Shown: positions 19,263-50,652, counted from the first letter of the stretch. The stretch is DNA of 64,000 bases from an uncultured Gaiellaceae bacterium (GCA_963731615.1 CAVSWD010000005.1:218203-282202); one strand, 5' to 3'. Numbers and translations: made by a program. The notes: generated by a model from the letters alone, not told the origin.

Positions 19263-19730
19263 CTAGATGGGGCGCCGCGGCGCGCGGGGCGGCGGCAGCT
19301 TGCCCGGCCTCTTGCCGAGGTGCGGGAGGGAGTCGAGCTTCGGGTACGGCTTCACGCTCTCCTGCCCGGCCGGATCCGTCCGCGCCACCAGCGCGACGGC
19401 CTCGGTGTCGGTGTAGTTCGCGACGACGTGCGGCAGACCCGGCGGGACAAAGACGAAGTCGCCCGGGCGCGCGGTGACGTGCTTGAGCATCTCCTCGCCG
19501 AACCACGTCACGATCTCGCCTTCGAGCACGTACGCGGCGGACTCGTGCTCGCCGTGCGAATGCGCGGCAGAGACGAAGCCGGGCTGGATGCGCAGGAGCT
19601 GCAGGGCCAGCTGCTGTGAGCCGACCGTCTCAGCGACGACTCCGGCGAGGTAGTCGAAGCCGGCGGCGCCCTCCTGCGGATCGGCCGGACGGATGACCCG
19701 GACGTTGCTGAGGCTGCTGACGCTGCTCAT
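19263..19730 (-). CDS. Cupin domain protein
   Basis: [17 protein letters not shown]...[12 protein letters not shown] overlaps the thiolase stop (ATGA). Confidence 0.75.
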
Positions 19731-20885
19731 CGTTCGAAGAGAACCGCCTGACCCTGGCCGACGCCGACGCACATTGTCGCCAAACCGTAGCGGCCGCCGC
19801 GCCGGCGCAGCTCGTGCAGCAGCGTCACGACCAGGCGGGCGCCGCTCATTCCGAGCGGATGGCCGATCGCGATCGCGCCGCCGTTCACGTTCACCTTCTC
19901 TTCGTCGAGACCGAGCTCCCGCACCACCGCGAGACTCTGCGACGCGAACGCTTCGTTCAGCTCGACGAGATCGAGGTCGCCGACGCCGATCCCGGCTCGG
20001 TCGAGCAGCTTGCGGACGGCGGGCACCGGCCCGATGCCCATCACGCGCGGGTCGACGCCGGCCACCGCACTGGCGACGAACGCACCGAGCGGGTCGGCGC
20101 CGAGCAGCCGGGCCTTCTCCTCGGAGGCGAGCACGAGCGCGGCAGCCCCGTCGTTGAGACCGCTCGAGTTGCCCGCGGTCACGGTTCCGTGCTCGCGGAA
20201 GGCCGGCTTCAGCGTCGCGAGCTTCCCGGCCGTCGTGTCGGGGCGCGGATGCTCGTCTCGCTCGAGGCCGCCCGCCGGCACGAGTTCGTCGGCGAAGTCC
20301 GACTCGGCCCAGCGCTGCTGCGAGCGGAGCGCGAACGCGTCCTGCTCCTCCCGGGACACTTCCCAGCGCTCGGCGACGTTCTCCCCCGTCTCGCCCATCG
20401 CCTCGAGCGGGAACATCGCCTCGAGCGCCGGGATTCGGGAAGCGCCAGCCCAGCGTCGTGTCGTACATCGTCCGGTCGCCGCGCGGAAAGGCGGCGTCGG
20501 GCTTCGCGGTGACGAGCGGCGCCCGGCTCATCGACTCGACGCCGCCGGCGACGAACAGGTCGCCGTCGCCCGCGACGATCGCGTGGCAGGCGCCGACGAC
20601 GGCCGAGAGCCCGGACGCGCAGAGCCGGTTGACGGTGACGCCCGCGACCGACTCGGGCAGCCCCGCGAGCAGGGCGGCCATCCGCGCGACGTTGCGGTTG
20701 TCCTCGCCCGCCTGGTTCGCGCAGCCGAGGTAGACATCCTCGATCTCGCCCGGCTCGACCCCGGCTCGCTCGACCGCTGCAGCGACCGCGATCGCGGCGA
20801 GGTCGTCGGGCCGCACCGCCGCGAGCCCGCCGCCGTACCGGCCGACGGGAGTTCGGACGGCCGAGAGGACGACCGCCCGCATCAC
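19727..20885 (-). CDS. Acetyl-CoA C-acetyltransferase (thiolase); frameshift near 20430
   Basis: NRLCASGL, ...GWRFPNP|[19 protein letters not shown]..., [28 protein letters not shown]. Confidence 0.85.
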
Positions 20886-21736: not shown

Positions 21737-22198
21737 GTGACGAAGGTCGACCTGAGCGACTCGATCCAGGACTACCTGAAGGAGATCTACAAGCTGGGGC
21801 TCGAGAGCGAGCGGGTGTCGACGTCTGCGCTTGCGCGGAGGCAGCAGGTCTCGGACGCGTCGGCGAGCGCAATGGTGAAGAAGCTCGCGGCGCTCGGGCT
21901 CGCCGAGCACGCGCCCTATCGCGGCGTCACGCTCACACACGCCGGCGAGCAGGTGGCGATCGAGGTGATCCGGCACCACCGGCTGCTCGAGCTCTATCTC
22001 GCGGAGACGCTCGGAATCAGCGTCGACGACGTCCACGACGAGGCCGACCGGCTCGAGCACGCCCTCTCGGAGGAGCTCGAGGCGCGGATCGACCGGGCGC
22101 TCGGCTTCCCCACGCACGATCCGCACGGCGATCCGATCCCGGACGCCAACCTCGAGTGGCCGAAGGAGGCGCCGGTCGAGGGCGGGAAGACCGGCTAG
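21737..22198 (+). CDS. DtxR/MntR-family metal-dependent transcriptional regulator
   Basis: IQDYLKEIYKL, wHTH, HRLLELYL, HDPHGDPIP. Confidence 0.85.
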   Translation: MTKVDLSDSIQDYLKEIYKLGLESERVSTSALARRQQVSDASASAMVKKLAALGLAEHAPYRGVTLTHAGEQVAIEVIRHHRLLELYLAETLGISVDDVHDEADRLEHALSEELEARIDRALGFPTHDPHGDPIPDANLEWPKEAPVEGGKTG

Positions 22199-22208
22199 CC
22201 CAGCCGAG

Positions 22209-22559
22209 TCAGCCCAGCCAGGCGAGCAGCAGGATCCCGATCGCGCCGAGCGCGGCGAGCCCCACCGCGACCGCGTTGACGACGAGCAGGATCAGGAGCG
22301 CCCGAGACGGCCCGGAGTCGCCCTGCGCGAGCCGAGGCCGGCGAGGCTGGTCGGCCGCACCGTTCTCGCTTCTCCAGCCGATCGCGCTCGCCAGTGTGCC
22401 GGTGATGAACTGGTTCAGGCTCGTGCCGTCGCGCTCGGCCGCTTCGGTCAGGGCACCGTGCAGGCTGCGCGGCATCCGCAGGAGCAGACGGCCGCTCGGC
22501 GTGGACGGTTCGCTGGAGCCGGCCTCAGGAGGCGCGGCCCGACGGCTCGAGACGCTCAC
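22209..22559 (-). CDS. Ribbon-helix-helix (HicB-antitoxin-like) domain protein with C-terminal transmembrane helix
   Basis: LLLRMPRSLHGALTEAAERDGTSLNQFI (RHH-like), then a linker and ALLILLVVNAVAVGLAALGAIGILLLAWL. Confidence 0.55.
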   Translation of the reverse strand: MSVSSRRAAPPEAGSSEPSTPSGRLLLRMPRSLHGALTEAAERDGTSLNQFITGTLASAIGWRSENGAADQPRRPRLAQGDSGPSRALLILLVVNAVAVGLAALGAIGILLLAWLG

Positions 22560-22576
22560 TCACCGAGTGTAGGACG

Positions 22577-22602
22577 AAAAAATACGCTGCACAACGCAGT
22601 AT
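22577..22602 (-). terminator. Intrinsic-terminator-like hairpin followed by the only T6 run I noticed, immediately after the sigma gene stop
   Basis: Minus strand reads AUACUGC-GUUGU-GCA(GC)GUAU-UUUUUU. The stem is short and imperfect. Confidence 0.45.
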
Positions 22603-23165
22603 CACGCCACGCGTTGCCCGAGCTCGCGCCCCAAACGCCCGAGCGAGTCCCTGAGCAGGCGCGAAACGTGGACCTGCGAGATTCCCAGCTGAGCAGCGAT
22701 TCGACGCTGGCTGAGGTCGCCGTAGTAGCGCAGCTGAACGACGCGACGCTCCCGCTCCGGCAGCGAACGGAGGCCTCGCGACACGAGCGCGCGGGCCTCG
22801 CTCCTCGCAAGTCCTTCCTCACCGCTGTCATCCGAGTGTGAGCCGGCTGCGGCCTCGAGCGGAAGCGGGAACCGAGCCGGGGTCGCCTCCTCACCGGCAC
22901 TGCGCGGAATGCGAATCAGCGTCGATCGGTCGCGCAGGTGCCGCTGGATCTCGCCGGCGATCGTCGGCGCGGCGTAGGCCCCCACGGTCACGCCGCGCCG
23001 AGGATCGAACCGGTCGACCGCCTTGATCAGCCCGACTGCGCCGACCTGCACGAGGTCCTCCAACGACTCGCCGCGATGGGCGAAACGCTGTGCGATCGTC
23101 CGCACGAGCGGAAGGTGCTCTTCGATCAGCAGTCTGCGGGTCTCCTGCGCGGTCGCCGTAGCCAT
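22602..23165 (-). CDS. RNA polymerase sigma factor, SigB/F/G subfamily (187 aa)
   Basis: LVRTIAQRF..GESLEDLVQVGAVGLIKAVDRFDP, IAGEIQRHLRD (region 2), QRRIAAQLGISQVHVSRL (region 4). Confidence 0.85.
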   Translation of the reverse strand: MATATAQETRRLLIEEHLPLVRTIAQRFAHRGESLEDLVQVGAVGLIKAVDRFDPRRGVTVGAYAAPTIAGEIQRHLRDRSTLIRIPRSAGEEATPARFPLPLEAAAGSHSDDSGEEGLARSEARALVSRGLRSLPERERRVVQLRYYGDLSQRRIAAQLGISQVHVSRLLRDSLGRLGRELGQRVA

Positions 23166-23273
23166 ACGTCGACTCTACGCCTTACAGCACTCGATTGCCA
23201 AGTCGTTGTTTCGTTCCGTCTTGTGCACGTCGTCTGCTAATGCTTCACGAATTGGCTCAACTATTACCTAGGT

Positions 23274-23279
23274 GGGTAT
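23274..23279 (+). promoter_or_regulatory. GGGTAT hexamer (SigB/SigF-type -10 consensus) 13 nt upstream of the ATG at 23292; near-leaderless transcript implied
   Basis: Read directly, inside the only clearly lower-GC intergenic stretch of the locus (23170-23290). The -35 match is weak (GGCTCA, 14-nt spacer). Confidence 0.35.
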
Positions 23280-23291
23280 TTCCTCTCCAGG

Positions 23292-24550
23292 ATGCATCGG
23301 CAGTCTCTACCGGGGCACGGACTCCGGATCGCCGTCGCAGTCCTCGTCAGCCTGGCGGTCGCCCCCGCTGCAGGCGCCGAGGACGGCGTGCCGGTGCTCG
23401 TAGACCCGATCGCGATGACAACCGCGATCGTCGAAGCATCCCTCGCCGGAGTCCCAGAGCTGCCACTCGAGAGCACGCTGCCCGCAGAACCTCCGGCAGC
23501 GACGGTTCCTGAGGCTGTGGCGGCGGCGGCGGAGCCGATTCCGGCTCAGGAGCCGCAGCCAACGCCGCCGCCGCCACAGCCTCAGGTGCCCGACCCCGAA
23601 ACCGCTCTGGAGGAGCTCAGCCCGCCGCTGGAGCCGGATCTCGCGCCGGTCGAGGAGCCGCAGTATCAGCCCGAGCCGCCGCAGTATCAGCCGCCGGAGC
23701 CCGTCACCGCTCCCGTTGCCGCTCCGCCGCCGCCGGAAGCGGCCGAGGAGGAGTGGACGTGGGACTGGTCGTGGAGCTGCGGCGATGCCCCGGCCCAGCT
23801 TCCGGCGGTCAAAGGAGACAATCTCCCTGATACCTGGAACTGGAACTGGGCTTGGAACTGCGGCGGTTCAGGGCCAACGCTGGCGAATAACGAAACGGAA
23901 AAGACGACGCAGTATCAACCCGCGCTTACGCAGTATCATCCGATCAATGTCAACGTATCGATTCGGATCGCCAGCCCGGGTGACGACGGGCCGGTGACCC
24001 AGACGAATGTCGTCGTCCTCGTCGAGGCGCCGACGCTCGGGCTGACGGCCCAAACACCTGTCGCGACCGCAGCCGTGCCCCCGGCCGGGCCTCCTGAACC
24101 GCCCCAAGCCGTCCCGGACGGGGACCAGCGCCCGCAGCTGCGGAGCCCGCGACTCAGCCGGCCGCCAAACCCGCGGCCGCAGGCGCCAAAGCCGAACCGA
24201 AGACCATGCTTGCCTCCGCGCAGAACCTCGCACCGGCGGAGGCCACCCCCTGGAGCGCCCGGCCCGCCACGCCGAAGCGGCTCCAGCGCACCACCCAGGA
24301 AGCCCATCGCAACCGCCCGCAGGTCCGGCGGCCCACCCGGCGTCCACTGCCCCCGACAAGGGCGCCGATGATCCCGGTGAGCTCCGCCGGCGCAGCCCCA
24401 CTGGGCGGCGTCGACGGTGGTGGCTTCCAGCTGGCCCTCCTACTCGTTCCGTTCGCGTTCGCGCTCGTCGACAGCGCGCGCCGGGTGGTCCGAGACACCG
24501 CGCCGCCGGTGGGGAGAGGCCATAAGAAGCGGCGGAAGCGCCCCGGCTGA
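23292..24550 (+). CDS. Secreted Pro-rich protein with twin WxWxWxWxCG motifs, one fibre-type repeat unit, C-terminal TM anchor and basic tail; frameshift near 24120
   Basis: Signal peptide ...AVAPAAGA; EEWTWDWSWSCG and DTWNWNWAWNCGG; TQYHPINVNVSIRIASPGDDGPVTQTNVVVLV; C-terminal FQLALLLVPFAFALV...GHKKRRKRPG in a second frame. Confidence 0.65.
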
Positions 24551-24622
24551 CCGCGGTCCTCTCTCCCGATCAACGGGGCTCAGACGCCCCGTATCCACTG
24601 ACACTTGGAAGGAGAAGGATCG

Positions 24623-26690
24623 ATGAGACGCACACTCGCGGTACTCGCCGCGGTCGTGCTCGGGCTCCTCGGGAGCGCCGGGCAGGCGTCGGCGAGCGAT
24701 CCGGGAGGCTCTGCCGAACAGGCGGCCGCACAGGCCGGAGCCAGCGCTCAATCGGCTCTGGCACTGGCGGGCGCGCTGCAGGGCAACCCGAGCAACGCAA
24801 ACACCGCCATCAAGGTGCTGAGCCCCGGCAACGCCGGCTCCGTCAACCAGTCGAACACCGTCATCGCCGGCTCCGTGGCCGCGAACGGCAACTCGACGAA
24901 TCAGACGGCAAGCCAGACGCAGGCAGGCGGCTCGGGCACGCAGACGGCGGGCCAGATCGCAGGCAACGAGCAGTCCGCGGCCAGCGACGCCGACGCAACG
25001 CAGTACGGAGCCGAGAATCAGAACATCGACGTCCGGGTCTTGAGCCCCGGCAACAGCGGCTCCGTGACCCAGAGCAACACCGTGCTCGCCGGCTCGCTGG
25101 CGGCGAACGTGAACGAGACGAAGCAGGGAGCGATACAGACCCAGGGTGGCGGCCCGGGCTCAGGCTCCCAGACGGTCGGGCAGGCGGCAGCGAACGAGCA
25201 GGACGCCTGGGCCGACTCGAAGGCGACCCAGCACGGCGCGAAGAACAAGAACATCTCCGTTCGCGTTCTCAGCGACGGGAACGACGGGGACGTCAACCAG
25301 TCGAACACGGTCGCGGGACTCGCGGCCGCGCTCAACGGCAACGCGACGGGTCAGACCGCATCGCAGAGCCAGGCCGGCGGTGGTACGCAGGCCGCGCTCC
25401 AGGGCGCGACGAGCAAGCAGAAGGCGGGGAGCTCCGCCGACGCCAAGCAGCACGGGGCGTCGAACGAGAACATCGCCGTCCGCGTGCTCAGCCCGGGCAA
25501 CGGCGGCTCCGTGCACCAGTCGAACACCGTTCTCGCCGGCTCGCTGGCGCTGAACGGGAACCACACGTCGCAAGCCGCCAACCAGGTGCAGGGCGGCGGG
25601 TACGGCGGCTCGAATCAGCAGGTGGCAGGCCAGGCGGCCACGAACGACCAGGACGCCGACGCCTACTCGGACGCCGACCAGCATGGCGCGTCGAACACGA
25701 ACCTGCCGATCCGGGTGCTCAGCGACGGGAACGACGGTGACGTCAGCCAGTCGAACACGGTGGCCGGGATCGCCGCCGCGCTCAACGGCAACGCGACGAC
25801 GCAGTCCGCATCGCAGAGCCCAGGCAGGCGCACCCGCGCCCATGCCTGTCCTCGTTCCGTACGACGACCACAAGGTCGTCCCGAAGGACGCGGGAACGGG
25901 CGTGCAGGCGCTGGGGCAGATCGCGCAGAACACGCAGGACGCCGACGCTGTCTCGACCGCCTCGCAGGAGCACGTCTCGAACACGAGCGCTCCCGTGCGG
26001 ATCGGCAGCGCCGGCAACGACGGCTCGACCACCCAGGCGAACACGGTTCTCTCGCTCGGGATCGCGGCCAACGGCAACAAGACGTACCAGGGGGCAACAC
26101 AGAACCAGGCCGGCTCCGGTGGGACGCTCGTGCAGGCGTCTGGGCAGATCGCCCAGAGCAAGCAGGACGCACTCGCCTGTGCCGACGCTGAGCAGAAGGG
26201 CGCCAAGAACGAGAGCACGCCCGTCCGCGTCTTCAGCGACGGCGCTGCCGGCTCGACGAGCCAGTCGAACACCGCGGCCGCGATCGCTGCCGCGCTGAAC
26301 GGCAACTCCACCGGCCAGTCGCTCGGCCAGTCGCAGGCCGGCTCTCCCGGCTCGACGCTGGTTCAGGCATCAGGCCAGGCCGCGGGGAACCACCAGACAG
26401 CGGCCGACAAGGCCGACGCGAAGCAGTACGGCGCCTCGAATCAGAGCACGCCTGTCCGCATCGGTCACGAGCGGCGCAAGCCGTGTGAGCAGCAGCCGCG
26501 CTGCGAGGACAAGCGGCCGGCCGAGCCGTGCCGCACGTGCGCACCCCGGAAGCCCGACTACGACGAGTGCAAGCGTCCGGTCGAGCCGAAGCCGTGCGAA
26601 CGACGCAAGCCGGTGATCGAGCGGTGCAATCCGTGCGATCGGCGGCCCAAGGAAGCGACCCCGAAGTGGAGGTATGCAGACGAGAGGTAG
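24623..26690 (+). CDS. Secreted Q/N/G/S/A-rich protein with 7.5 repeats and a Cys/Pro/Lys/Arg/Glu-rich C-terminal tail (no family assigned); frameshift near 25820
   Basis: AGGAG SD; signal peptide MRRTLAVLAAVVLGLLGSAGQASA; repeat core N.N[IL].VRVLS[PD]GN.G.V.QSNTV......A.NGN.T.Q.A.Q.Q.GG; tail RKPCEQQPRCEDKRPAEPCRTCAPRKPDYDECKRPVEPKPCERRKPVIERCNPCDRRPKE. Confidence 0.75.
24780..26480 (+). repeat. Tandem in-frame coding repeats, periods 219-231 nt (one unit 286 nt), 7.5 copies
   Basis: The VR[VI] landmark codons recur at 24809, 25031, 25259, 25478, 25709, 25995, 26223 and 26454. Units 3 and 5 are nearly identical at DNA level. Confidence 0.8.
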
Positions 26691-26817
26691 AGCGACCTGA
26701 ACGTGCTTCCGCAGGCGGGTGCGCGCGCCCGCCTGCGGAGGCAGAACTCGGCTCCGTTGACACGAAATCGGCGCAGTACTACCGTCGAAGCAGGGAAAAC
26801 GACCAAGGGCGGCCGCA

Positions 26818-27308
26818 TTGCCCGCAACGAGAGCGAGATCGTCACTGCGGCGATCGTGGCCCCCGGCAGGGGTCGTGGCCCTCCTATGCCTGTTTCTCGC
26901 CGCCGTGCCGCTTCCGGCGGCAGCGATGCCCACGCCCGATCCGGCGCCCTCCGGGGTGACGCCCGACCCGGCGCCCACAGCCCCCGCCGTCGTGATGCCG
27001 ACGTCGCCGGCGGTCCGCGTGCCGGTTCAGCAAGCGTCTCGGCCCGCAGCAGCGACCCCGCCCGTCCGCCGCCAGGCACCGGCTCCTCGACCGAAGGCGA
27101 AAGCGAAGCCGAAACGGCGGTCGTCGCGCTTCAGGCCGTCGTCCGGGACTCGACACAGGCCCCCCGCAGCCCCTCCTTGCCTGCAGCGGCAGCCGCAGTC
27201 GAGCGGAGGCTGCTCGTGCTCGCCGGGGTCGCGCTGATCGTCGTCGCGCTGGGCGGCGGCGTCGTCCTCGTCGCGAGCCGCCGCGCCCTTGCGGGAGCAC
27301 ACGCATGA
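26818..27308 (+). CDS. Pro/Ala-rich protein with N-terminal signal sequence and C-terminal TM anchor; frameshift near 27120
   Basis: ...RRSWPPAGVVALLCLFLAAVPLPAAA|MPTPDPAPSGVTPDPAPTAP...KAKAKPK, then in another frame ...RRLLVLAGVALIVVALGGGVVLVASRR. Its stop overlaps the next ATG (ATGA). Confidence 0.55.
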
Positions 27309-28640
27309 GCGCCATGCGACGGCTCGGGTTGCTCGGCGCGCTGATCCTGCCGCTCGTCGTCGCGCCGCAGGCCGGCTCCGTCCCCGGCGCGCCGATTCCC
27401 CAATGTTCTCCCAGTGCGGCGGCCGGCTGCAACGGCTGGTTCACCGGCAACGTCACCGTCTCGTGGACGTACGACCCGGCCGGCGTGACGCAGACCGTCG
27501 GCTGCAACGTCAAGACGATCACTGCCGACGGCACTACCTCCCAGTCGTGCGAGGTCTGGTACGGCGACTCCAGCTTCGCCCGCACCGTCACGATCCGGCG
27601 CGACGCGACGCCGCCGCAGGTCACAGGCTCGGCCTTCGAGCGCGCCCCCGATGCGGACGGCTGGTACAACCGGCCGGTCGCGGTCACCCTCTCCGGTACC
27701 GATGCCACGTCCGGCCTGGCCTCGTGCGACCGGCCTGCCTACAGCGGCCCCGACGCCACGTCTTCGCAGCTCTCGGGAACCTGCCGGGACGTTGCCGGGA
27801 ACACGAGCACAGCGGCGACGGTCACGCTCAAGTACGACGCCACCGCTCCGGCCGTCAGCGCCGCGGCGGATCGGGCACCGGACGGCAAGGGCTGGTACCG
27901 GCGGCCGCTGACGGTCCGGTTCACGGCCACTGACGCCGTCTCGGGCGTCGCCTCCTGTACCGCCCCGGCCCGGTATGCGGGCCCCGACCGCCAGGGCGTC
28001 GCCCTCGCGGGCAGCTGCCGCGACGGCGCCGGGAATGTGTCGGCGGAGCAGCCCTTCGTGCTCAACTACGACGCGACGGCGCCGAAGCTCAGCCGCGTGA
28101 AGGCGCAGGTCGCGCGGGGCGTGGCGCGCGTCGGCTGGCAGAAGCCCGCCGATGCAGTGCTCGTCCGGATCGAGCGGAGCCCGGGCCTGAACGGAGCCAA
28201 GCAGACGCACGTCTACAGCGGCACCGGAGAGCAGTTCCTCGATCGCACGGTTCGCCGCGGCGTGGCGTACCGGTACGAGGTCAGCGCGCTCGACGCCGCC
28301 GGCAACGTCTTCGGAACGACCGTCGCGACCGGGCCGCGTCCGGCCCTGCACACGCCCGCGGCACGGGAGGTCGTGCGGGCGCCCGTCGTGCTCGGCTGGA
28401 ACGCCGTTGCCGGCGCCCGCTACTACAACGTCCAGCTGCACCGAAACGGCGTCAAGGTGCTGACCGCCTGGCCGCGGACACCGAGGCTCCGGATCGCCCG
28501 CAGCTGGCGCTCGCTCGGGAAGCACGCAGTCGCTTCGGCCCGGCACCTACACGTGGTACGTCTGGCCCGGGCTCGGATCGCGCTCGCTCTCCCGCTACGG
28601 CAAGCTGCTCGGCTCGAGCAGCTTCGTCGTCAAGCGCTAG
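27305..28640 (+). CDS. Secreted multi-domain protein (three Ig-like Cys-containing modules + FN3-like + C-terminal conserved module); frameshift near 28525
   Basis: Signal MSAMRRLGLLGALILPLVVAPQAGS. Recurring D.TAP.V......P...GWY..P..V.....DA.SG.ASC......G.......G.C.D.AGN. C-terminal ...LRPGTYTWYVWPGLGSRSLSRYGKLLGSSSFVVKR in a second frame. Confidence 0.7.
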
Positions 28641-28996
28641 CGTCTTCCGAAGAAGAAGCGTTCCAGAACCGGCAGCACTTCCTTGCGCGTGAACGGCTTG
28701 ACGCGGTCGACCGTGCCGTCGTCCTCGAGCACGCGCACGTCGTCCTCGAGGGCGTCGTTCGCAGCCTCGAGCGCGTCGCCGAGCTCGTGGCCCTCGAACA
28801 CGTAGTCGTCCCGGCGCGACTCCTCGCTGGGACGGTGCTGCGGGTTCACCGCCCGCCCTACGGCCCAGACCGCACCCGGCTTGCGCTCGACCCAGATCAC
28901 GATCCGCTCTTCGCGACCGGTGTCGTCGACCCCGCGGAGCACCCGCTCGGCGCAGCGGGCATCGGAAGAATTGCGGCGCACGGCCTGAGGATACAA
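28637..28996 (-). CDS. Hypothetical acidic protein; start uncertain
   Basis: Coding-like composition, ...IVIWVERKPGAVWAVGRAVNPQH...DDYVFEGHELGDALEAANDALEDD.... Its stop shares a CTAG with the stop of 27305..28640. Confidence 0.45.
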   Translation of the reverse strand: MYPQAVRRNSSDARCAERVLRGVDDTGREERIVIWVERKPGAVWAVGRAVNPQHRPSEESRRDDYVFEGHELGDALEAANDALEDDVRVLEDDGTVDRVKPFTRKEVLPVLERFFFGRR

Positions 28997-29005
28997 TCGC
29001 CCGCG

Positions 29006-29247
29006 ATGGCGTTCCGCAACCTCTTCTCATTTCTCTTCCAGCGCTCGTCCGCGGACGAGCGGGTGGCCGCCTACGTGATTCGCGAGCACGAACGCGGCCG
29101 CGATCTCGCGGAGATCCTCGAGGATCGCTACGTGCAGAACCGCCTCACCCCGCAGCAGCGCGCACGGCTGCTCGACCGGCCCGAGGTGATCAAGGCGATC
29201 GGCAACGACACGATCTCCGTCGCCCGCACCAGCCTCGAGAGCCCTAG
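29006..29247 (+). CDS. Hypothetical small protein; 3' end uncertain
   Basis: MAFRNLFSFLFQRSSADERVAAYVIREHERGRDLAEILEDRYVQNRLTPQQRARLLDRPEVIKAIGNDTI looks coding. The remainder of the open frame is antisense to the OCD gene and looks non-coding. Confidence 0.3.
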
Positions 29248-33317: not shown

Positions 33318-33392
33318 GGTGCGCCCGGCACGATTCGAACGTGCGACCTCTGCCTCCGCAGGGCAGCGCTCTATCCCCTGAGCTACGGGCGC
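33318..33392 (-). tRNA. tRNA-Arg, anticodon GCG as written
   Basis: Manual cloverleaf: GCGCCCG/TA/GCTC-AGGGGATA-GAGC/G/CTGCC-CTGCGGA-GGCAG/AGGTC/GCACG-TTCGAAT-CGTGC/CGGGCGC-ACC. A20 is present. Confidence 0.85.
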
Positions 33393-40838: not shown

Positions 40839-42303
40839 GTGGCTACGGGAACGCAGACCGACGTCGTAATGCCGCAGATGGGCGTGTCCGTCTCGGAGGG
40901 GACGATCACCAAGTGGCTCAAGTCCGAGGGCGAGACGATCGCCCGCGACGAGCCGCTGCTCGAGATCTCGACCGACAAGGTCGACACCGAGATCCCCAGC
41001 CCCGCTGAGGGCGTCGTCGCCCAGATTCTCGTGCAGGAGGGTGAGACGGTCGAGGTCGGCGCCGTTCTCGCGGTGATCGCGCCCGAGGGAGCCGAGCCCG
41101 CCGCGCCCGCGCCGGAACCGGCCCCGGCGGACGTGCCCGAGCCGGCCACGCAGGCGGCCGCGGACGCATCCGAGGCGGCGGCGAACGAGATCGCGGAGCC
41201 GACGGCACCGACGCCCGCGCCGACCCCTGCCCAGGCTCCCGACTGCCGCGGCCCCTGTCGCCGCACCCGCGTCCGGCAACGGCCGCACCTTTGTCTCGCC
41301 AGTCGTCGCGCGCATCGCCGCCGAGCACGGCGTCGACCCGAACTCGGTCAGCGGTACCGGCACCGGCGGCCGCGTGACGAAGAAGGACATCCTGGCCTTT
41401 GTCGAGTCTGGCGCCTCGACGAAGGCTACGCCGGCTCCGCCGGCGGAACAGCCCCCTCCGCCCGAGCCTCAGGCGGTAGCACCGCCGCCGCCCCCCACCC
41501 CGGAAGCTGCACCGGCTCCTGCACCTGCGCAGGCCCCGTCACCGCCGCCTGCTCCGGCTCAGCCACCGCCACAGGCGCAGCCTGTGGCAGCAGGGGAGAG
41601 CGAAGAGCCGATGACGGCCATGCGCAAGGGGATCGCCGAGCACATGCGCCGTTCGCTCGACACCTCGGCGCACGTGACCAGCGCGATCGAGGTCGACATG
41701 TCGAAGGTCGTGGCGATCCGCCAGAAGCTGAAGAAGGAGTTCGAGGCGTCGTACGGCGTCAACCCGACGTATCTCTCCTTCGTCGCGCGCGCGACCGTCG
41801 AGACGCTGCGGGAGTACCCGTGGATCAACGGCGAGATTCGCGGCGACAAGATCGTGACGCGAAATTTCGTCAACCTCGGCTTCGCGGTCGAGCTGGCCGA
41901 CGGCAAGGGCCTGATCGTGCCGGTGGTGAAGAACACCGAGAGCCTGAACCTGCTCGGGATGGCGAAGTCGGTGACCGAGATCGCTGCGCGGGCACGCGAC
42001 AAGAAGCTGATGCCCGACGACGTGCAGGGCGGCACGTTCACGATCACGAATCCCGGCGGCTACGGCACCTTCCACGGCACGCCGGTGATCAGCCAGCCAC
42101 AGGCGGCGATCCTCGGCACGTACGCCGTCGTGAAGCGGCCGTGGGTGGTGCAGGACGAGCTCGGCCAGGACGTGATCGCGATCCGGCCGATCATGAACCT
42201 CACCCTCACGTACGACCACCGGCTCGTCGACGGCGCACTCGCCGGCCGTTTTCTCAAGTCGTTGCGCGAGAAGCTCGAGAACTGGGGCGAAAGCGACTAC
42301 TAG
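40839..42303 (+). CDS. Dihydrolipoamide acyltransferase (E2); frameshift near 41240
   Basis: Lipoyl domain [14 protein letters not shown]; [18 protein letters not shown]; catalytic [13 protein letters not shown]. Confidence 0.85.
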
Positions 42304-42501: not shown

Positions 42502-43192
42502 ATGAACCTCGGCGTCGTTCCGTACGCCGAGGCATGGGAGCTCCAGCGGGCGCTGGCGGGCGCTGTCTCTCAGGGCGCGATCCCGGACACGATCCTGGTG
42601 CTCGAGCACCCGCCGACGGTCACCACCGGCCGCCGCACCGATGCGGACGAGCTGCACATCCCGGCAGAGCGCCGAGGTCGAGGTGGTCGAGACCGACCGC
42701 GGCGGCAAGTCGACCTTCCACGGGCCCGGCCAGCTCGTCTGCTACCCGATCTTCGATCTCCACCGGCACGGCCTCGACGTGAAGCGCTACTGCCGCGATC
42801 TCGAGGAAGCGCTGATCCGCACGCTGGCGTCGCTCGGCCTCGAGGGGGAGCGCATCGACGGCCTGACCGGCGTCTGGCTCAACCGCCCTCCACGCAAGAT
42901 CGCCTCGATCGGGATCCACGTTGCGAAATGGGTGACGACACACGGCTACGCGCTCAACGTCGACCTGGATCCGGCCCCGTTCACGCAGTGGATCACAGCA
43001 TGTGGGCTCGAGGACGCCGCCTTCACGACGATCGCGAAGGAGCTCGAGCGTGCCGTCACGGTCGACGAGGTGCGAGCGCCCGCTCTCGAGGCGCTCGCGG
43101 ACGTCTTCGAGCTGGAGCTCGAGGAGCTGCCGGCCGACGCCGGACACGGCCTTTGGCCGCAGCCCGTCCACGGGCAGCTCGCGGCCCGCTAG
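42502..43192 (+). CDS. lipB: Octanoyltransferase LipB; frameshift near 42670
   Basis: [12 protein letters not shown]...|...[19 protein letters not shown]...KIASIGI. Confidence 0.85.
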
Positions 43193-50579: not shown

Positions 50580-50652
50580 TGGCGAGAGCCGGACTTGAAC
50601 CGGCGACACCACGGTTTTCAGCCGTGTGCTCTACCAACTGAGCTACCTCGCC
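50580..50652 (-). tRNA. tRNA-Phe (GAA)
   Basis: GGCGAGGTAGCTCAGTTGGTAGAGCACACGGCTGAAAACCGTGGTGTCGCCGGTTCAAGTCCGGCTCTCGCCA folds as a cloverleaf; CCA is not encoded. Confidence 0.9.

Follow-up and report, generated by a model that had tools for sequence, protein, structure and literature searches.

Our analysis of a 64-kb stretch of DNA from an uncultured Gaiellaceae bacterium (GCA_963731615.1, CAVSWD010000005.1:218203-282202; hereafter the window, with a G+C content of ~70% throughout) revealed a self-contained module of six genes. They encode a sigma factor, a membrane-tethered ribbon-helix-helix (RHH) protein with a transmembrane (TM) segment (RHH-TM), and four proteins with export signals, B, C, D and E, and are arranged as RHH-TM <- sigma / B -> C -> D/E (22209-28640). 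The explanation that we favor as a whole, to which we give about an even chance, is that the module is specific to Gaiellaceae and related Thermoleophilia and has a role in the cell envelope. We hold as evenly balanced the corresponding mechanism, in which the sigma factor controls the module, the repeat protein C self-associates at the cell surface, B tethers it, the RHH protein acts as an anti-sigma factor, and translation of C is coupled to that of B. These roles of C, B and the RHH protein, as well as the coupling, are what we infer from the genes and from predictions; expression of the module may be linked to stress or development. The promoter motif of B, the masking of the Shine-Dalgarno sequence of C, the hairpin after C, and the D-E promoter are described here for the first time.

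The gene order and orientation given in the preliminary description of the locus were borne out by an open reading frame (ORF) list, a plot of the G+C content at third codon positions (GC3) and three-frame translations. The sigma gene (22602-23165, 187 aa) is encoded on the minus strand and contains the Sigma70_r2 and Sigma70_r4 domains. The RHH-TM gene follows on the same strand after a 42-nt gap that begins at the sigma stop codon (22209-22559, 116 aa from a GTG start). A terminator-like hairpin with a T-run (22587-22612, minus strand) overlaps the sigma stop codon and lies upstream of the RHH start; it coincides with the weak terminator noted earlier between the two genes. The other four genes are on the plus strand: B (23292-24550, ~419 aa with a frame change near 24100 bridged), C (24623-26690, 688 aa after removal of one inserted C at ~25820), D (26818-27308, ~164 aa with a missing A near 27108 restored), and E (27305-28640, ~444 aa after removal of one inserted base near 28527). 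The stop codon of D and the start codon of E share the tetranucleotide ATGA, in agreement with the overlap reported before.

The C family comprises at least 503 homologues in a collection clustered at 90%, and a profile of C searched against 1.84 billion representatives yielded 1511 sequences at E<=1e-3 (representatives at 50% identity), 449 of them at E<=1e-30. Locus counts given here and below refer to the best 80 of 297 C-encoding stretches from species-representative genomes, in which partner genes were sought with tblastn. Nearly all of these 80 loci come from metagenome-assembled genomes (MAGs) labeled as Gaiellaceae, Gaiella, Thermoleophilia, Solirubrobacteraceae or unclassified Actinomycetes. 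Around C, and in the same order and orientation, the sigma gene was found in 78 of the 80 loci, the RHH gene in 73, and B and E in 71 each. As D is of low complexity and cannot be detected by BLAST, it was assessed with an ORF and hydrophobicity test; 42 of the 49 evaluable loci have a D-like ORF that runs up to the E start and carries a hydrophobic or transmembrane stretch at its C-terminus. Co-occurrence across relatives, which the preliminary description had proposed as a check, was thus positive for every partner gene. The flanking genes are metabolic and differ when a close relative, a distant one and a complete 3.1-Mb chromosome are compared. Because the gene set and its order are shared despite the changing flanks, the six genes constitute a self-contained module.

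The link between the sigma gene and the plus-strand array, suggested in the preliminary description, gained support from a conserved promoter immediately ahead of B; its -10 element is of the SigB/F type, and the promoter co-varies with the type of the sigma factor. The intergenic regions between the sigma gene and B were anchored on the over-represented hexamer GGGTAT, yielding a two-part motif and then a weight matrix. The motif reads aTGGmTCA-N14-GGGTATTT, and the B start codon lies ~10-13 nt past the -10 element. In the window the promoter occupies 23252-23279 (plus strand): TTGGCTCA (23252-23259), a 14-nt spacer, and GGGTAT (23274-23279), with the start codon of B 12 nt downstream. Because this distance is so short, the B-C mRNA is predicted to be leaderless or nearly so. 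The window site (23250-23283) scores 35.7 bits with the weight matrix; on both strands of the 64 kb, no other site reaches 14 bits. Across 1.07 Mb of related loci, every match of at least 12 bits sits at the position of the B promoter, a result that is partly circular, since the matrix was trained at that position, and of which the absence of matches elsewhere is the valid control. The motif was found at the B-promoter position in ~57 of 78 loci, and four loci outside the training set, which have no exact GGGTA, also score there. Within the window and ~14 kb around each related locus it occurs only at the B promoter.

In a sister clade with a different sigma factor, the TGGMTCA motif is missing and TGAATGAAA-N14-GCATAGAT is found at the equivalent position. 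The type of the sigma factor predicts the type of the motif in 15 of 16 loci with a sigma like that of L002, a distant member of the set, and in 53 of 62 loci with a window-type sigma. The SigB-type consensus is GTTTAA-N12-14-GGG(A/T)A(A/T), and its -10 pattern is recognised by SigB homologues of Streptomyces (PMC8346170). By this consensus, the GGGTAT with its 14-nt spacer in the window matches the promoter type of SigB/F/G sigma factors.

The preliminary description had assumed that all four plus-strand genes form one sigma-dependent array; this is probably not so. A perfect 18-bp GC stem with a 4-nt loop (26705-26742, plus strand) lies 15 nt past the C stop codon, and in 42 of 42 loci a GC hairpin with a dG of -24 to -52 kcal/mol lies past C, at 0-6 nt from the stop codon in 38 of them and 30-60 nt downstream in the other four, the stem sequences differing between loci. 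The hairpin is a candidate terminator, attenuator or mRNA stabiliser. Beyond it, a housekeeping-type promoter for D and E is located at 26757-26785 (plus strand; TTGACA, 17-nt spacer, TACCGT). The pattern TTGA[CA]N-N17/18-TAnnnT was found in 39 of 39 loci, 55-72 nt past the C stop codon (19 nt in L071), against a background of 0.008 per 170 nt. B-E is probably not one sigma-dependent operon, and the simplest reading of the sequence would be three transcription units: sigma (with RHH), B-C, and D-E. Given the hairpin after C and the separate promoter of D-E, the private sigma factor most likely drives B-C only.

Genes B and C are separated by a spacer that is 67-89 nt long in 47 loci and whose RNA in the window (24548-24625, plus strand) contains an anti-Shine-Dalgarno stretch, an inner GC hairpin and the Shine-Dalgarno sequence of C. 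In the predicted fold, the Shine-Dalgarno sequence of C (GGAAGGAGAAGG, 24607-24618; GGAAGGAG) is bound by the anti-Shine-Dalgarno pyrimidine stretch (~24552-24566) just past the B stop codon, and the resulting helix encloses the GC hairpin (24574-24591), the sequence of which is variable among loci. For 38 of 48 loci, pairing of this Shine-Dalgarno sequence with the 30 nt that come directly after the B stop codon is predicted at P>0.5; the mean folding z-score is -2.5, and shuffling of the 27-nt 5' arm reduced the mean pairing probability from 0.71 to 0.32. The flanks of the helix differ by clade, being CCTTCTCC/GGAGAAGG in one and GCTCC/GGAGC in the other. As the ribosome-binding site of C appears locked in a helix with bases past the B stop codon, translation of C would occur mainly on those messages from which B is being translated.

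The sigma factor matches Pfam Sigma70_r2 at 1e-20 and Sigma70_r4 at 8e-15. Regions 2 and 4 appear as two separate matching stretches, and region 3 is absent. The best NCBIfam model is that of SigB/F/G (TIGR02980), with 174 bits against a cutoff of 234 bits, a shortfall explained by the missing region 3; only the general sigma-70 superfamily model TIGR02937 is passed. Neither a kinase anti-sigma of the RsbW/SpoIIAB type nor a STAS anti-anti-sigma was found among the genes called around the module in L001 (a close relative), L002 and L083. A housekeeping-type promoter candidate of the sigma gene itself (23172-23201, minus strand; TTGGCA-18-TAGAGT) ends 7 nt ahead of its ATG, which suggests a leaderless sigma mRNA; TTGnnn-N17-TAnnnT occurs just ahead of the sigma start codon in ~35 of 78 loci. 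An assignment of the locus to anti-phage defence systems was rejected, as PADLOC gives only a generic sigma region-2 similarity to MzaA.

The RHH gene adjoins the sigma gene in 73 of 80 loci. Its product belongs to the Pfam family HicB (PF05534, 35 bits against a cutoff of 21) and consists of an N-terminal ribbon-helix-helix domain (a GRLLLRMP strand and two helices) and a ~30-aa hydrophobic C-terminal tail anchor ending in AWLG. The family comprises 337 clusters; one member, P0444, is encoded in the same module on the 3.1-Mb chromosome, and another, P0391, is a fragment of the RHH protein that is 100% identical. An adjacent HicA toxin gene was found neither in the window nor in the four loci with gene calls (L001, L002, L083 and L084). 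A toxin-antitoxin pair was therefore rejected: HicA is missing, the upstream neighbor is the sigma gene, and the protein has a C-terminal membrane anchor. One NCBI record names the RHH protein HicB antitoxin; since the HicB-type domain comes without a HicA partner, this name is probably wrong. Moreover, in relatives the gene has been called from an internal Met (80-89 aa; L001 5544-5813, L002 5213-5455, equivalent to 22475-22559 on the minus strand of the window), with the loss of the GRLLLRMP strand, and the longer ORF of 116-124 aa is conserved between distant loci. Both database annotations, the antitoxin name and the starts called too far downstream, are corrected here.

Protein C, once its frame is corrected, consists of a signal peptide, seven full repeats of 73-77 aa (an insert extends one of them to 95 aa), flanked on either side by partial repeats, and a ~70-aa tail, in agreement with the 7.5 repeats counted earlier. 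The repeat region contains 18% Ala, 13% Gly, 11% Ser, 11% Gln, 9% Asn and 7% Thr, so that ~70% of its residues are A, G, S, Q, N or T, and aromatic residues are nearly absent. In 51 homologues, down to 38% identity, invariant Q, N, A and G residues stand at even spacings (period-2). Such spacing reads as the signature of beta strands with one constrained face, and as an argument from the sequence it is independent of structure predictors. The AlphaFold2 model of P0006, which is 86% identical to C, has a mean predicted local distance difference test score (pLDDT) of 77.8 and a predicted template modeling score of 0.73; pLDDT exceeds 90 in the repeats, and the tail is disordered. Each repeat in this model forms strands of ~27, 23 and 9 residues joined by an SPGxDG loop. 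Pfam marks for Inhibitor_I78 and OST_P2 on some homologues fall in insert regions or are faint, and were disregarded. The tail (26475-26690, plus strand) contains eight Cys and many Lys, Arg, Glu and Pro. Tails of the same clade have 6-10 Cys in patterns like PC..K.RCE...PC..C.PRKP, whereas in more distant homologues the tail is short and Lys-rich. The Cys-rich tail may serve in cross-linking through disulfides, or bind metal or the wall.

Signal peptides were recognised on all four proteins B-E, as stated in the preliminary description, by reading of the sequence and by low-confidence N-terminal helices in AlphaFold2 models. The absence of recognisable families was likewise corroborated, as B, C and D match nothing in Pfam, NCBIfam or PADLOC and E has weak Ig-like (immunoglobulin-like) matches only. 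Behind its signal peptide and a first Pro-rich linker, protein B has the Trp-ladder strands WTWDWSWSC and TWNWNWAWNC, and then QYQP motifs and part of a C-type repeat (NVNVSIRIASPGDDGPVTQTN). A second linker, Pro-rich and basic, leads to the hydrophobic anchor, and the tail after it closes with RPG. The single fibre repeat ascribed to B proved to be a shared element (E ~1e-6 to 4e-7 between B and C) that is partial rather than a full copy: it runs from the end of strand 2 through the short strand and the SPGxDG loop into the start of strand 1. A strict pattern for the B core motif matches in 36 of 80 loci, and the C-terminal module of B is kept in 49 loci as a Gly-rich stretch, ~16 hydrophobic residues, ARR, ~20 residues and R-[E/D/K]-R-P-G. 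The invariant terminal Pro-Gly of this cytoplasmic tail (24460-24550, plus strand), which follows the membrane anchor, matches no sorting signal known to us. A B-like tblastn match elsewhere in the window (41314-41622) is the Pro/Ala linker of an E2 acyltransferase.

At its N-terminus, protein D has an SSLRR motif and a hydrophobic signal; regions rich in Pro and then in Lys come next, and a transmembrane anchor forms the C-terminus. The N-termini of D in the window (26818-26900, plus strand) and in loci L006, L016, L022, L061 and L066 carry S-L-R-R (SSLRRS, TSSLRRR, RSLRRF) before the hydrophobic stretch; this motif could be a twin-arginine (Tat) rather than a Sec export signal. For protein E, the AlphaFold2 model of P0121 (86% identical, pLDDT 89.9) consists of a signal helix and five beta-sandwich domains of the Ig/FN3 (fibronectin type III) type. 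Foldseek returned tandem Ig/FN3 arrays, with the GhpA filament first at 7e-12, as well as fibronectin and complement MG domains, and three Cys pairs are invariant. The Ig-like or FN3-like nature of E proposed earlier was thereby confirmed, as a chain of five such domains.

The mechanism that we propose for the module would run as follows. A housekeeping-type promoter would make the sigma factor, and the tail-anchored RHH protein, encoded just downstream, would restrain it at the membrane in the manner of an anti-sigma factor. Once released, the sigma factor would read TGGMTCA-N14-GGGTAT and produce a leaderless B-C message that extends as far as the hairpin after C. On this message, ribosomes that finish translating B would occupy the anti-Shine-Dalgarno stretch and free the ribosome-binding site of C, which would thus be produced only together with its anchor. 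Exported C may stack into a wide-rung beta-solenoid or a cross-beta ribbon with the conserved Q/N/A face as its core; B, held in the membrane by its C-terminal anchor and extended by its Pro-rich linkers, would present a hairpin on which C could dock or be seeded. Constitutive envelope partners would be D, a membrane-anchored protein rich in Pro and Lys, and E, with its rod of five Ig-like domains. An extended version of this scheme appears doubtful to us: here C would represent a new structural class of functional amyloid with rungs of ~75 residues, more than three times the width of curli, B would seed and tether it through the shared hairpin and the Trp-ladder, sigma and RHH would be a new type of sigma/anti-sigma pair, and the whole, with its coupled translation, would rank among the main features of the envelope in Gaiellaceae and related Thermoleophilia.

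Several observations weigh against the proposed mechanism. All homologues found come from metagenomes or MAGs. The -35-like element of the B promoter is unlike the GTTT of the SigB/F consensus and might serve as an operator rather than a promoter element. When the B-C spacers were aligned with MAFFT, RNAalifold gave zero consensus pairs, which is attributable to hairpins out of register in the alignment; the spacer structure comes from per-sequence folding with shuffled controls, in loci that are phylogenetically related. Secretion, sortase or assembly machinery is not encoded nearby, and a pattern search of B-E in all frames found neither an LPXTG-type motif with a membrane anchor nor a lipobox. 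A comparison of the C profile with CsgA of E. coli by hhalign gave a probability of 0.3% (E 0.21), and Foldseek of the C model against PDB gave no significant match (best E 0.45, TM-score <=0.14). Only one of five C models is confident (pLDDT 77.8 versus 66.7, 66.4, 66.4 and 44.8), and its strands may be stacked in parallel or form an antiparallel meander. Finally, each of the genes B, C, D and E changes its reading frame once in the window.

These frame changes raise the question of whether the module is a decaying pseudogene cluster in this organism, all four plus-strand genes being frameshifted. The density of changes would fit, with four in the 5.3 kb of B-E versus one in ~6 kb of neighboring genes when compared with L001. 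However, the same damage is seen in housekeeping genes of the window: a thiolase (19730-20882, minus strand), a 2-oxoacid dehydrogenase E2 acyltransferase (40839-42303, plus strand) and LipB (42502-43192, plus strand) each have a single Pfam domain divided between two frames. In tblastn with L001 proteins (~81% DNA identity), B, C, E and the neighboring thiolase each appear in two frames. Three of the changes in the module are single-base indels: one extra C within AGCCCAGG at ~25820 in C, AAA in place of a frame-restoring AAAA near 27108 in D, and one additional base near 28527 in E; in B a frame change was placed near 24100. GC3 remains high past each shift, and stop codons do not pile up. 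Relatives have intact copies, of 688-695 aa and 84-88% identity for C, and of 443 aa and up to 86% identity for E. D is a single ORF in 10 of 10 other loci checked, from both short-read and long-read assemblies, and is split in L001, a related long-read assembly. As housekeeping genes are split alike and intact copies exist in relatives, the breaks are most likely assembly indels, and decay of the module is highly improbable; frequent 1-nt indels are as expected of unpolished long reads. Programmed frameshifting in D was rejected, as the gene is split in two long-read assemblies, is a single ORF in the ten other loci checked, and in the window shifts in an A homopolymer.

Other explanations concern the assembly of C. 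The protein could form a two-dimensional coat (S-layer-like or a sheath) over a thin wall, with B and D as tethers and E as a spacer. If the 7-8 repeats, with strands of 27, 23 and 9 residues, were to form a solenoid, a monomer shaped as a flat plate and not as a thin rod would result; C seems to be the main product of its unit, given the strong hairpin directly after it, and its basic tails, Lys-rich or Cys/Lys/Arg-rich, could bind wall polymers. Cells of Gaiella occulta stain Gram-negative, and their peptidoglycan layer is thin (PMC6741124). Yet neither SLH nor another known S-layer anchoring domain was found with Pfam and NCBIfam, and S-layer genes are usually constitutive, whereas B-C is under an alternative sigma factor. 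We consider the coat unlikely, although a fibre and a two-dimensional coat are both compatible with the data, which do not separate one- from two-dimensional assembly. More improbable, in our view, is that C does not polymerise and works as a surface-bound or secreted protein, for example an adhesin of the beta-solenoid type or one that binds minerals, polysaccharides or ice, held by B and using its repeats as a flat binding face. The nominal Foldseek neighbors of C are all parallel beta-helices or amyloid, with FapC at the top, and many of the beta-helices are monomeric adhesins or lyases (Ag43, pertactin, tailspikes); a regularly spaced polar face suits a binding surface as well as a core. 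These matches, however, are below significance, as given above, a catalytic or ligand-binding domain was not detected in C, and the composition of C together with a repeat-copying B is more typical of templated self-assembly. It is also quite improbable that the fold of C is an AlphaFold2 artefact and the protein a largely disordered Q/N/G/S/A-rich matrix or hydrogel protein. Hydrophobic and aromatic residues are very few in C, four of the five models are of lower confidence, and AlphaFold2 is known to call confident beta-solenoids too often in repeat proteins, a tendency that is weaker when natural repeats have diverged, a case in which it was found reliable (PMC11795689). The repeats of C are of this diverged kind, and the strict period-2 of Q, N and A across the 51 sequences would be unusual for disordered regions. 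Self-association of C at the surface, with B as its tether, remains the reading that we prefer.

Several further features of the window were noted around the module. A DtxR/IdeR-type metal-dependent repressor gene (21737-22198, plus strand) is convergent with the RHH gene and ends 10 nt from its stop codon. It is adjacent in L001 and not in L002 or L083, and we consequently regard it as a neighbor rather than a member of the module. On the other side, a 119-aa ORF with coding-type GC3 (28637-28996, minus strand) converges on E, the stop codons abutting. It is 85% conserved in L001 and L003, where it has not been called as a gene, and recurs elsewhere in L022 with 71% conservation. This ORF is a real small gene that lies outside the module and belongs to a family that we do not recognise. 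Further downstream lies a ~78-aa ORF (29006-29239, plus strand; MA.RNLFSFLFQRSS...) that is 88% identical to a called 79-aa gene of L001 and has no family. Two tRNA genes (33320-33392 and 50580-50652, both on the minus strand) are the only Rfam matches in the window. A prophage or mobile element was rejected as the source of the module, as composition is uniform across the window and no genes of this kind were found.

To our knowledge, Gaiellaceae and related Thermoleophilia are common in soil metagenomes, almost none of them has been cultured, and nothing is known about their cell surface; a literature search for amyloid or surface structures in Thermoleophilia or Gaiella yielded nothing relevant. 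The module provides a concrete, lineage-wide candidate set of envelope genes, found at no fewer than 297 places in species-representative genomes. If C self-assembles, a fold without a solved relative would join the few functional amyloids and coats of bacteria, and the private sigma factor, its private promoter and the coupling of anchor and subunit at the RNA level would make a compact circuit, reusable in engineered living materials. Should the fibre idea fail, two predictions would remain, namely a co-varying pair of sigma factor and promoter, and a conserved masking of the C ribosome-binding site by bases past the B stop codon.

The module shares features with several known systems. As for the SigB/SigF regulons of Firmicutes and Actinomycetota, TIGR02980 (SigB/F/G) is the best family match of the sigma factor of the module, and the GGGTAT -10 element with its 14-nt spacer equals that of Pctc, a SigB-dependent promoter of Bacillus subtilis (PMC8346170). 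The differences lie in the -35 element, which is TGGMTCA and not GTTT, and in the sigma factor, which is without region 3.

The parallel with curli drawn in the preliminary description stands for the working logic and fails for homology, leaving an analogy only. Like CsgA, C is secreted, rich in Gln, Asn, Gly, Ser and Ala, and built of imperfect tandem repeats with ladder-like Q/N positions, and its stretch A.Q..a.N.n..V.VLSPGN.G.V.Q locally resembles ALALQTDARNSDLTITQHGGGNGADVGQ of CsgA. As in curli, with the major subunit CsgA, the nucleator CsgB and the regulator CsgD, there is a cell-associated second protein bearing a related repeat element. Transcriptional control is dedicated in both systems, by a sigma factor in the module and by a LuxR-type activator in curli. 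However, Curlin_rpt (PF07012) is unmatched by the window C, its L002 homologue and P0006 even at E up to 10, and the hhalign comparison given above is equally negative. The repeat is ~75 aa long in C versus ~22 aa in curli, and the subunit ~690 aa versus ~130 aa. C does not have the strand-turn-strand rungs of ~22 residues, and curli structures are absent from its Foldseek matches. The outer-membrane secretion genes CsgE, CsgF and CsgG are absent from the module, in which B is anchored by a transmembrane helix.

The Fap system of Pseudomonas is represented by FapC (9u4u), the top nominal Foldseek neighbor of C, with imperfect repeats in a cross-beta stack. The match is not significant (E 0.45, TM-score 0.04/0.14), no Fap accessory genes are present in the module, and its host is not a proteobacterium with the Fap outer-membrane pathway.

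Among the surface amyloids of actinobacteria, long chaplins are cell-anchored, and short chaplins assemble on them. In Streptomyces, the sigma factor BldN, with the adjacent sequence-novel membrane anti-sigma RsbN, drives the chaplin and rodlin surface amyloid genes (PMC6101532). The arrangement of the module is similar, with genes for putative surface proteins under a dedicated alternative sigma factor and the gene for a membrane protein next to it, and RsbN is the closest precedent for the anti-sigma role that the tail-anchored RHH protein may have. The two systems differ in the sigma factor, BldN being of the extracytoplasmic function type and that of the module SigB/F-like without region 3, and in anchoring, which in the module is by a transmembrane helix versus sortase. 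No part of the module matches a chaplin or rodlin domain in Pfam, and chaplin, rodlin, TasA and SLH domains were found in none of B-E with Pfam and NCBIfam. Membership of the module proteins among curlins, Fap, chaplins, TasA, SLH proteins or sortase substrates fails, and its resemblance to curli and chaplins would be one of working logic: a major subunit, a cell-bound relative of that subunit, and a dedicated regulator.

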